28,791 nt of DNA from a virus. Its lineage: Duplodnaviria > Heunggongvirae > Uroviricota > Caudoviricetes. The position numbers are program-made. Below, piece by piece: positions 12,001 to 15,000 of this stretch (within the stretch, counting starts at the first letter, position 1; every line of letters starts with the position of its first letter). The stretch covers positions 1-28,791 of the IMG/VR virus record IMGVR_UViG_2534682161_000017, one strand, 5' to 3'.

Positions 12001-15000
12001 TCGTCAGCCAGATATGTAATGACTACTGCCATGTTGACCTCCGATGATTGACTTTGGCGGTGACGCGCCGGGTGCTTATCTTCCGGTTGCCGTCGTGCAG
12101 CTGCACTTCACGTCACCCCAAAGCCAACTACTCTTTGGTTCCCGCATTTCGGCGGGACAATCCCATCAATGTTAAAGAGCCTGCCAATCTGTTCCGTTTG
12201 GCTACCAGCTTCCTGCTGATGGCTTAAAGATAACTTAGGTTATAGGTGTGGTCAATAACCTAATTTATATTTTGTGGTAAATAAGTTATAAGTGATGGAT
12301 AACAAAGGTATTTTATTTTTGTAAATGTTGCTGATTGATTGGTGTTTGAGGGCTTGCGTGCTGGGTGAAGGTGTTACCTTTGGCTTGATGCTTGTCTATG
12401 ATGAGGATGGTTGATTGGATGGTGAACGGCAGGGAAAGAAAAACCCGGCGCTGAGGCCGGGTGTTTTTAGTCCTTTCTGTTGCTTAGCATTTCGTCGATT
12501 TCTAAGTCAATACGATATTGATCTATTGATTTTCTCTCGTTTGGGGTTGGTATTTTATACTGTTCAATTAGATCTGTTGTGTATTTTATTTCATCTAATG
12601 TGATTTTTATATCAGAGAGAATCTCTTTTATATCAATTAGATGCTCTTCTTCTTTTGCGCGATTAGAGCTATGTTCAATCATTTGAGATAGCTTTTTGCT
12701 AATGCTTAGCAAAACAAAAAGAATGATGACCAAAACAACAACAAAAACTATCAGAAATTCCATTATCCCTCCGCACTTCCGTAAGTCTTCTTCTGATTAT
12801 CGGTTACCAACTATGAGACGACCAGAATACTCTGCCAATAATCCTTACGGTTTCATGAAATTCATCTCTATCCATTACTTCATCCGGGTACTCTTCGCGA
12901 TTTATTGATCTGATTATCACCGATGTAGGGGTGGCGATTAATGTTTTTACTCGTAACAAATCAGACTGGCAAATAGCGTAGGTTTTACCATCTCTGATTG
13001 TGGTATCTTGCGTGTTAACACCAACAACATCGCCATCGTGAAGCGTAGGTTCCATGCTTTGCCCTACAACCCTAACTAGCTTGGCTGATCTTTCAGATAC
13101 TCCCATCTTTTTCAGATAGTGCTTTCTGAAAACCAAAGAGAACTCCGATGATTCCTCTAGCTCGCAGCTACCGCTTCCAGCTGAAAGCGAAACGTTAAGA
13201 AGAGGCAACGCAACAAACTCGTCATCGTTTCTTTTAATGTCTTCCCATACCACAGCTTTTAAAGATGACTCACGGACATTGGATGGTTCTTCATGTGCAC
13301 CATCCCTCATTTCACCAATACCAGAACTAAGCCATTCAGGGCGCACTTTTAAAGCATTGGCTAATTCAACCATCTTGCGAGATCCGTTTGTTTTACCGGA
13401 CGACATCTTCTGTATGGCTGGCTGAGATATTCCAACCATGTCTGCAAGCTGTGATTGTGATACCCCAGCTAAGCTCATGGCTGCATTTAGTCTTTCTGCG
13501 AATGTTTTCATACCCACAAATCTATAACTACGGTTATCCAAAGTAAAATAACAAAGGTTATTGCTATTTTTTATAACTTGAGTTATCTTTGGTTATAATC
13601 AATGACCACAAGAGGTATGCTCATGAATTTAGTAATTCAACGAGCCTTGAAAATTGTCGGTAGCCAAAAGCGCCTTGCCGACAAGTGTGGTGTAACGCAG
13701 CCAGCAGTACACAAATGGCTGAAAGGCGGATTGGTCTCTCCAGAGAAAGTTACCGCCATCGTTAACGCCACTGGAGGGCAGATCAAGGCTTACGAAATTC
13801 GCCCCGATTTGCCACACCTGTTTCCAAAACCGAATCAGGCAGCATAAGTAACACCGCTCTTTAACAGTCATGGTCCTCATTCCCGCCGAAATGCGGGAAT
13901 ACAACGCGCATAAGTTGATGCGCATAACTTCTTATTTGTTAAGGAAATACTTACATATGGTTCGTGCAAACAAACGCAACGAGGCTCTAAGAATCGAGAG
14001 TGCGTTGCTTAACAAAATCGCAATGCTTGGAACTGAGAAGACAGCGGAAGCTGTGGGAGTTGATAAGTCGCAGATCAGCAGGTGGAAGAGGGATTGGATT
14101 CCAAAGTTCTCAATGCTGCTTGCTGTTCTTGAATGGGGCGTCGTTGACGACGACATGGCTCGATTGGCACGACAAGTTGCTTCGATTCTCACCAATAAAA
14201 AACGCCCGGCGGCAACCGAGCGTTCTGATCAAATACAAATGGAATTTTAACAACATCCAACGAGGTAATTATATGCGAAACAAAGGCTTTAATCCACCTG
14301 ATACACACAAAGAAGCTAAGCGTTTGCGCTTCCTTCGTTCCATTGATGAAAGAACTCAAATCTCTTTTGTGAAAGTTGCCAGAACTGAGCTTCTGAAGGC
14401 TGAGGCGAGGGCGTTGCTCCCGTCTCTACCAAAAGAGGAGGGATATACGTTCATTCCAAACGCATTTCTGGAAAAGCTTCTCAAAGAAGACATATCCGTA
14501 AGTCAGTTTAACGATGTTCTTAAGGTCTTTCGTCAAGGCAGGTAGTTATGAGCAATACAGCAAAAATCTACGATTTCAGCGCCGCACACGAGCGCAGGAG
14601 CAACAGGATGGAGAACCAGAAAACTGGTTACATTCCGTTGTACCGGAGCATTCTGAAACAGTCATGGGCGAAAGATGTTTATCTTCGCACCCTGTGGGAA
14701 AACCTTCTCCTGAATGCCGCCAGAAAGCCATACAAAGCGAATTTCAAAGGTCATGAATGGCATCTGCAACCCGGTCAACTGGTTGTGACAGCAGCTGATT
14801 TAGGTCTTCAGTTATGCGACAGGCATGGCAAGCCGGCAAGCCGTGATCAGGTTGAGCGGATGCTTCAGGTTTTTGTGAAAGAGGGGATGATCACCATTGA
14901 TGGAGAGAAGCAAAAAGGTCGTGTGATCACCATCACAAATTACCATGAATACGCTCAAAAAATGGACAATTCACCCGCACATGAAGCCGCACAAACAACC

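Follow-up and report, generated by a model that had tools for sequence, protein, structure and literature searches.

Do two identical hairpins that flank the immunity region of a lambdoid prophage form a matched pair of nut sites, and would the N protein encoded beside them have a specificity of its own, different from that of lambda N? The question arises from a DNA stretch of 28,791 nucleotides (hereafter the window), which covers positions 1 to 28,791 of the IMG/VR record IMGVR_UViG_2534682161_000017, a virus of the Caudoviricetes. An initial annotation of this DNA had proposed matched nutL and nutR sites with a non-lambda boxB, paired to a variant of N.

Anatomy of the locus

The segment of the window from 11.7 to 14.3 kb is a textbook lambdoid immunity region. 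Its promoters, operators and repressor genes, together with the terminators downstream, are as follows:

11124-11145, minus strand: tL1-like intrinsic terminator located after N and the ORF 11248-11718, with an 8-bp stem and then TTTTTTT
12255-12227, minus strand: pL-like promoter TTGACC-17-TATCTT
12230-12243 and 12255-12268, minus strand: pL operator palindromes ATAACNNNNGTTAT, overlapping the pL-like promoter
12804-13511, minus strand: cI-type repressor (HTH and Peptidase_S24), with a probable ATG at 13511 (the mechanically called ORF extends to 13541)
13524-13537, 13548-13561 and 13573-13586, plus strand: OR operators, three palindromes
13570-13599, plus strand: pR-like promoter TTTATA-18-TATAAT
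13623-13847, plus strand: cro-type repressor gene, 74 aa, with YdaS_toxin/P22_Cro/HTH_3 family matches
13906-13940, plus strand: tR1-like element just before cII, the hairpin GCGCAT-aagttg-ATGCGC followed by a T-rich tail, read from the sequence
13957-14250, plus strand: cII gene (Pfam Phage_CII, E 5e-48)
16893-16916, plus strand: strong tR2-like intrinsic terminator, with the DnaB-like helicase gene before it and the nin/Q region after it

There are six operator-like sites in the window, compared to 0.63 expected. A small membrane-protein ORF and a bidirectional terminator accompany the cI-type repressor in the interval between the two promoters. The tR1-like element scores under the threshold of the terminator scan; in HK620 the same stretch starts 7 nt downstream of a 7-base site that is annotated there as tR1. 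Further on, the window contains Q (19613-20236), a pR'-like promoter and a tR'-like terminator.

The two nut sites occupy the canonical positions within this arrangement, i.e., pL-nutL-N on the left and cro-nutR-cII on the right, and consist of the following elements:

12140-12181, minus strand: nutL, boxA then boxB, between pL and N
12172-12181, minus strand: nutL boxA GGCTCTTTAA, within the stretch annotated nutL in HK620
12140-12157, minus strand: nutL boxB hairpin UCCCGC-CGAAAU-GCGGGA, identical to the boxB in the annotated HK620 nutL
12118-12138, minus strand: second hairpin of the N leader, CCAAAG-agtagttgg-CTTTGG followed by GGGTG, read from the sequence and homologous to the stretch after the lambda nutL boxB
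13855-13900, plus strand: nutR, boxA then boxB, just after cro
13855-13864, plus strand: nutR boxA CGCTCTTTAA, which matches the first bases of the annotated HK620 nutR exactly
13879-13900, plus strand: nutR boxB hairpin, core UCCCGC-CGAAAU-GCGGGA at 13881-13898, identical to HK620 nutR

When up to two mismatches are allowed, the whole window contains exactly two copies of the 18-mer TCCCGCCGAAATGCGGGA, at 12140-12157 on the minus strand and at 13881-13898 on the plus strand, and no match was found in 100 shuffles; the identical hairpin described at both nut sites in the initial annotation is thus borne out. In isolation, both sequences are predicted to fold into these hairpins, nutL at -10.5 kcal/mol (z -2.8) and nutR at -12.5 kcal/mol (z -4.1). 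The stem was originally given as 6 bp, which is correct for nutL, but in nutR it extends to 8 bp (ATTCCCGC/GCGGGAAT, 13879-13900). At the remaining copies of CGAAAT in the window the stem never exceeds 4 bp, and no Rfam family matched anywhere in the window at gathering thresholds.

The boxA core GCTCTTTAA likewise occurs exactly twice in the window, at 12172-12180 (minus strand) and 13856-13864 (plus strand), in each case upstream of a boxB hairpin on the same strand, with a boxA-boxB spacer of 14 nt in nutL and 16 nt in nutR. The adjoining boxA that had been reported for both hairpins is therefore shared as far as this core is concerned, but the form CGCTCTTTAA is found at nutR only, and nutL reads GGCTCTTTAA, which begins with GG rather than CG. 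The start originally assigned to the feature, position 12108, has to be moved, as it falls about 30 nt past the 3' end of nutL.

The N protein

The gene that follows nutL starts 195 nt downstream of the pL-like promoter with its operators and has a GGAGG ribosome-binding site in its leader:

11727-12032, minus strand: N antiterminator gene, an ORF of 101 aa, a hybrid of an HK620-type N-terminus (residues 1-33) and a phage 21-type remainder
11961-12005, minus strand: N arginine-rich motif DDNARNRRRARRQAQ, codons 10-24, from translation

The arginine-rich motif assigned to N from the start, DDNARNRRRARRQAQ, is indeed found in this ORF as residues 10-24, with RNRRRARR as residues 14-21. The product is a small basic protein with its arginine-rich motif at the N-terminus, encoded by the first gene of the pL operon. 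It is also homologous to characterised N proteins: residues 61-98 align with residues 73-109 of lambda N in PDB entry 6GOV (E 2e-6), i.e., with the C-terminal segment of lambda N that binds RNA polymerase, and the protein is near-identical to phage 21 N from residue 34 on, with 97% identity at the DNA level to a phage 21-type N over codons 34 to the end. Over residues 1-64, identity to N of HK620, HK140 and mEp213 is about 95-97%. The Pfam family N_peptide (PF25694) scores 20.1 bits on this N, which is below the curated cut-off of 27.9, and relatives with a P22-type C-terminus do have an N_peptide match.

Known relatives and prior annotation

Comparison with phage records by megablast indicates that the N/nut module is common to HK620, CUS-3, HK630, HK140 and many Stx phages. 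In the HK620 record (AF335538) the two sites are annotated as 'nutL; putative N-utilization leftward' and 'nutR; putative N-utilization rightward', and the boxA-spacer-boxB stretches of both are base-for-base identical to those of the window. The N motif of HK620 is identical as well (MTVVITYLADDNARNRRRARRQAQ..., with one T2A difference), its N starts with MTVVITYLADDNARNRRRARRQAQREQ... as does that of CUS-3, and the layout pL-nutL-N, cro-nutR-cII is the same. The differences concern the immunity genes between the nut sites and the C-terminus of N, which is ...CLPNVAIYAAGYRKSKQLTAR (P22/H-19B-like) in HK620 compared to ...GVTCSGRQKQRGKSIPAYYD (phage 21/lambda-like) in the window. The element can therefore be regarded as already known at the level of annotation, as the HK620 type of N and nut in a phage 21-like C-terminal context, and since HK620 already has these sites and this N motif in its annotation, it is an ordinary find.

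A tblastn search with the full N located the same N-terminus in HF4s, 611R6, CUS-3, IME10, HK140, mEp213, HK620, HK630, JEP4, ECP1 and phi296, where the N genes are mostly annotated as antitermination protein N; the 44-aa N-terminus alone gave no match in the phage collection, probably because low-complexity filtering acted on so short a query. At 80% coverage or more, N together with nutL is present in 234 of 5426 complete E. coli genomes; the RefSeq name for the protein in these genomes is 'hypothetical protein'. This label and the Pfam miss suggest that the annotation could be improved. The literature that we found on HK620, boxB, nut and the arginine-rich motif consists of genome papers that treat the specificity types of N in general terms, and we found no binding or specificity experiment on this pair in it. 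A remark in one genome paper is that new N-termini of N probably mean new boxB specificities (PMC2629481).

Co-occurrence of the N motif and boxB

A protein search for N returned 344 relatives, and among the best 120 of them there are two classes of N-terminus on a common body, namely the HK620 type and the phage 21 type MVTIVWKESKGTAKSRYKARRAELIAERR. For tabulation, 84 loci were taken by similarity of the N protein, independently of the RNA (a scan of genome contigs accounted for 4 loci only). Both nut sites carry the 18-mer, with at most one mismatch, in 70 of the 72 loci that encode the DDNARNRRRARR motif, and these 70 loci have the same layout, in which one 18-mer precedes N on the strand of the N gene and the second lies further upstream on the opposite strand. 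One of the two exceptions (L004) is a locus where the stored DNA is cut inside boxB, and in the other (L044) the sequence upstream of N has been replaced by rearrangement. The boxB of phage 21 was found in none of the 72 HK620-type loci.

The opposite holds for the loci that encode the phage 21 motif in an otherwise near-identical N: the 18-mer is absent from all 12 of them, and the boxBs of phage 21 (TCTCAACCTAACCGTTGAGA; TCACCTCTAAC[C/A]GGGTGA) were found at both nut sites in nine loci and at a single site in the remaining three. These boxBs are the stem-loops annotated in phage 21 itself. The claim of a matched nutL and nutR paired to the N variant is supported by this almost perfect co-variation (70/72 versus 0/12) as well as by position and anatomy. 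Because most of the E. coli loci differ very little from one another, common descent explains part of their agreement. The distance between nutL and nutR ranges from about 1.15 to 2.9 kb across the 70 loci, which implies that the pair persists over different immunity cassettes.

Joint exchange of boxB and the N-terminus of N

Phage 21 has the same pL leader and boxA as the window, a similar boxA-boxB spacing and a 6-nt loop, as in the window. It differs in the motif of N, which is GTAKSRYKARRAELIAERR, and in its boxBs, UCUCAA-CCUAACCG-UUGAGA at nutL and UCACCU-CUAACC-GGGUGA at nutR, neither of which is found in any locus with the HK620 motif. Neither the CUAACC-type loop nor the motif GTAKSRYKARR, which characterize the specificity of phage 21, is present at the nut sites and in the N of the window. 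Alignment of the stretch from nutL to N with one phage 21-type locus gave these identities by segment:

pL leader and boxA: 92%
spacer and boxB: 38%
hairpin after boxB: 67%
rest of the N leader: 75%
N codons 1-33: 40%
N codons 34 to end: 97%

In this alignment, only the boxB patch and N codons 1-33 are replaced, the other DNA being 67-97% identical. The two patches are separate, and they correspond to the RNA target and to the peptide that presumably reads it, which are thus seen to have been swapped jointly in the sequence comparison.

Conservation of the hairpin in distant relatives

More distant relatives of N, found in Cronobacter and other contigs, retain the core of the motif and the loop of the hairpin, and the stem is changed compensatorily, for example to CUCCGC/GCGGAG or CUCCAC/GUGGAG. 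A pattern scan for boxA and a variant closing region returned 76 loci (about 30 chance matches without a stem were ignored) and revealed a further family of 29 loci with the same motif core, where N starts with MTIVMTILASDNARNRRRAKR... and the closest named phage is Pantoea phage PA-1. The loop CGAAAT is found at every nutL and every nutR of this family; the nutL sites were outside the selection by the pattern and therefore constitute independent observations. Three different C-termini of N occur in the family, namely the lambda/phage 21-like ...RQKxRGKSIPLI, the P22/H-19B-like CLPxxAxxxAGYRKSxxxTAR and ...HIIK. In evolution, the cassette of motif and boxB has been joined to N C-termini of at least three kinds.

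Among 24 distinct hairpins, the loop CGAAAU and the closing C-G pair are invariant. Changes on both sides occur in 5 of the 7 stem pairs, a degree of covariation that was reached by none of 500 shuffles, and 94% of the cells are paired, compared to 35-63% in slid controls, although the percentage is inflated by the selection of rows for at least 6 of 7 pairs. A conserved loop on a covarying stem, in rows preselected in this manner, is what is expected of an RNA hairpin under selection.

These results bear on the possibility that the hairpins are not targets of N but a terminator, a site related to RNase III or Rho, or an operator, and that their duplication is incidental to recombination at module boundaries. 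The nut regions border an exchangeable immunity module, so conserved boundary sequence would be expected there anyway; CUS-3 has an annotated 'boundary sequence' in this position, and the wide variation of the nutL-nutR distance among loci is in keeping with such exchange. However, neither hairpin is followed by a run of T, which rules out an intrinsic terminator, and an operator is ruled out because the operators are the ATAACNNNNGTTAT palindromes located elsewhere. The preservation of the loop under compensatory changes of the stem, and the fact that the hairpin switches with the N-terminal 33 codons of N and not with the immunity genes, likewise argue against this explanation, which we consider extremely improbable.

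Comparison with lambda and P22

With the hairpins read as boxB, the remaining question is whether the specificity is distinct. The boxBs of lambda (NC_001416) are GCCCU-GAAAA/GAAGA-AGGGC, with a 5-bp stem and a 5-nt loop. Neither hairpin of the window has the GCCCU/AGGGC stem or the GAAAA or GAAGA pentaloop, in agreement with the initial description of a boxB unlike that of lambda, and the loop has 6 nt, among which is GAAA. The lambda boxA is CGCTCTTA and the lambda boxA-boxB spacer is 8-9 nt, so that the spacers of the window resemble those of phage 21 and not those of lambda. The architecture of the system is nevertheless the same, and the sequences flanking nutL share homology with their lambda counterparts, among them the hairpin and GGGTG downstream of boxB. 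Lambda N has the motif core A-x-T-RRR-E-RR and the N of the window A-x-N-RRR-A-RR, and the residues after RR differ.

One could accordingly suppose that C-GAAA-U is a GNRA-type loop, and that the motif reads both kinds of hairpin and cross-reacts with lambda. The A-x-x-RRR-x-RR core common to both proteins, the GAAA within a loop comparable to the GAAGA/GAAAA of lambda, and the homologous nutL flanks are all compatible with this view; since the core aligns and the loop contains GAAA, some cross-reaction with lambda may occur. Against this, the loop is of 6 nt and closed by C-G rather than of 5 nt and closed by U-A, and the stem sequence is unlike that of lambda. Trp18 of lambda N stacks on the lambda boxB loop, and this N has no Trp at the corresponding position. 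Furthermore, the core DNARNRRRA[RK]R is kept in about 100 loci, where it is co-inherited with boxBs that always have the CGAAAU loop, and none of these loci pairs the motif with a lambda-type boxB. We therefore regard a lack of distinct specificity as unlikely.

P22 provides a third comparison. The N-terminal leader MTV(V)ITY... before the arginine-rich stretch of P22 gp24 is common to the N of the window, and the P22-type C-terminus is shared by the N of HK620 itself. The P22 boxB GCGCUGACAAAGCGC, with the loop GACAA, and the motif GNAKTRRHERRRKLAIERD are unlike those of the window (the P22-type N and nutL are those of locus L087).

What the window does contain is the DDNARNRRRARRQAQ motif together with UCCCGC-CGAAAU-GCGGGA at both nut sites, as in HK620. 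We conclude that these are, with high probability, nutL and nutR of a P22-like/lambdoid prophage that uses an HK620-type N antiterminator. Judged by sequence, the motif and boxB appear to be a matched specificity cassette distinct from the pairs of lambda, phage 21 and P22.

Proposed mechanism and implications

The transcripts from pL and pR each carry boxA followed by the boxB hairpin, as laid out in the anatomy of the locus. Free N proteins are disordered; the N-terminal arginine-rich helix (core DNARNRRRARR) would bind boxB and read the invariant CGAAAU loop closed by C-G, as co-occurrence and covariation suggest. By analogy with lambda, NusB and NusE would assemble on boxA and NusA on the middle of N. 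The C-terminus, homologous to that of lambda and phage 21 N, would insert into RNA polymerase and make the enzyme resistant to termination, and its match to lambda N in the antitermination complex makes the standard mechanism likely. Polymerase modified in this way is expected to pass the tL1-, tR1- and tR2-like terminators and thereby reach the recombination, replication, nin and Q genes. The binding of N to boxB, its specificity and its dependence on Nus factors are what we infer for this pair from its sequence.

The system is a standard lambdoid early antitermination switch, in a variant that entered GenBank with the HK620 genome, so it carries little weight as a discovery. The residual novelty is that of a widespread recognition pair that is apparently uncharacterised biochemically. 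It may be, and we hold the chances to be even, that DNARNRRRA(R/K)R and the C-G-closed CGAAAU hexaloop constitute a fourth natural pair of N peptide and boxB, orthogonal to those of lambda, P22 and phage 21, with a structural solution of its own (such as a GAAA tetraloop with a C.U mismatch as its closing pair, recognised without a stacking tryptophan), and spread over prophages of the Enterobacterales with three C-terminal modules. If it is orthogonal, the pair would provide one more peptide/hairpin tag for orthogonal RNA tethering and a further example of RNA recognition by arginine-rich motifs.

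The N leader and the nut hairpins

The leader of the N gene carries a second hairpin, which lies directly 3' of the nutL boxB:

12118-12138, minus strand: hairpin CCAAAG-agtagttgg-CTTTGG, followed by GGGTG

It is homologous to the lambda sequence CAAAGC-agaag-GCTTTG GGGTG, found after the lambda nutL boxB, and is kept even in loci where boxB has been exchanged. The length of the leader was compared among IMG/VR loci sharing an identical boxB and N motif (comparison loci L003-L082), with window 12032-12157 as the reference. Measured from the nutL boxB to the start codon of N, the distance falls into a set of discrete lengths (125, 160, 212, 331, 349, 376, 419 and 579 nt), from which we conclude that the N leaders hold different insertions. 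The window has the shortest form in this comparison.

A nutR stem variant, GCUCCCAC-CGAAAU-GUCGGAGC, is found in L093, L094, L096 and about 35 other loci; in every copy the third pair, counted from the loop, is an internal C.C mismatch, and the partner nutL stem in these loci is fully paired.

Tandem N genes in a Cronobacter prophage

Two N specificities occur in tandem at positions 2796-4303 of L087, a Cronobacter prophage contig (Logan SRR26536385_13), in the following order:

Order of features in L087
P22-type nutL (GACAA-loop boxB) and P22-type N, the latter at 3034-3333
3330-3623: 97-aa ORF with a third motif-like stretch, DNSRNRRRERRKQERD
3606-3636: intrinsic terminator
3655-3672: HK620-type boxB-like hairpin without boxA
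4001-4303: HK620-type N

The nutR of this locus is P22-like only. The arrangement is either a relic of recombination or a two-step antitermination cascade.

Other genes of the window and annotation of N

Two ORFs and a terminator were recorded around the N gene:

12467-12763, minus strand: 98-aa ORF between pL and cI, with a hydrophobic segment at its N-terminus
12443-12462: bidirectional GC-rich terminator adjoining the 98-aa ORF
10136-11158, minus strand: 340-aa ORF that follows the tL1-like terminator

The position matching window 12437-12763, between pL and cI, is held by rexB in lambda and by hkaS in HK620; the 98-aa ORF itself has no significant Pfam match. The central region of the 340-aa ORF is long, highly charged, of low complexity and rich in E, A, K and R (…AEEEAKAAAEALAKQ…REAEAKAAAERAERERIEAEQRAQREAKEAAERAEREKQ…), and as a result the opposite strand shows several overlapping ORFs that are spurious.

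Window-type N genes (11727-12032, minus strand, in the window) are present in 234 of 5426 complete E. coli genomes at a coverage of at least 80%. PGAP labels them "hypothetical protein" in the complete E. coli RefSeq genomes, and the window N scores below the Pfam N_peptide cut-off; this combination of label and score is an annotation gap.
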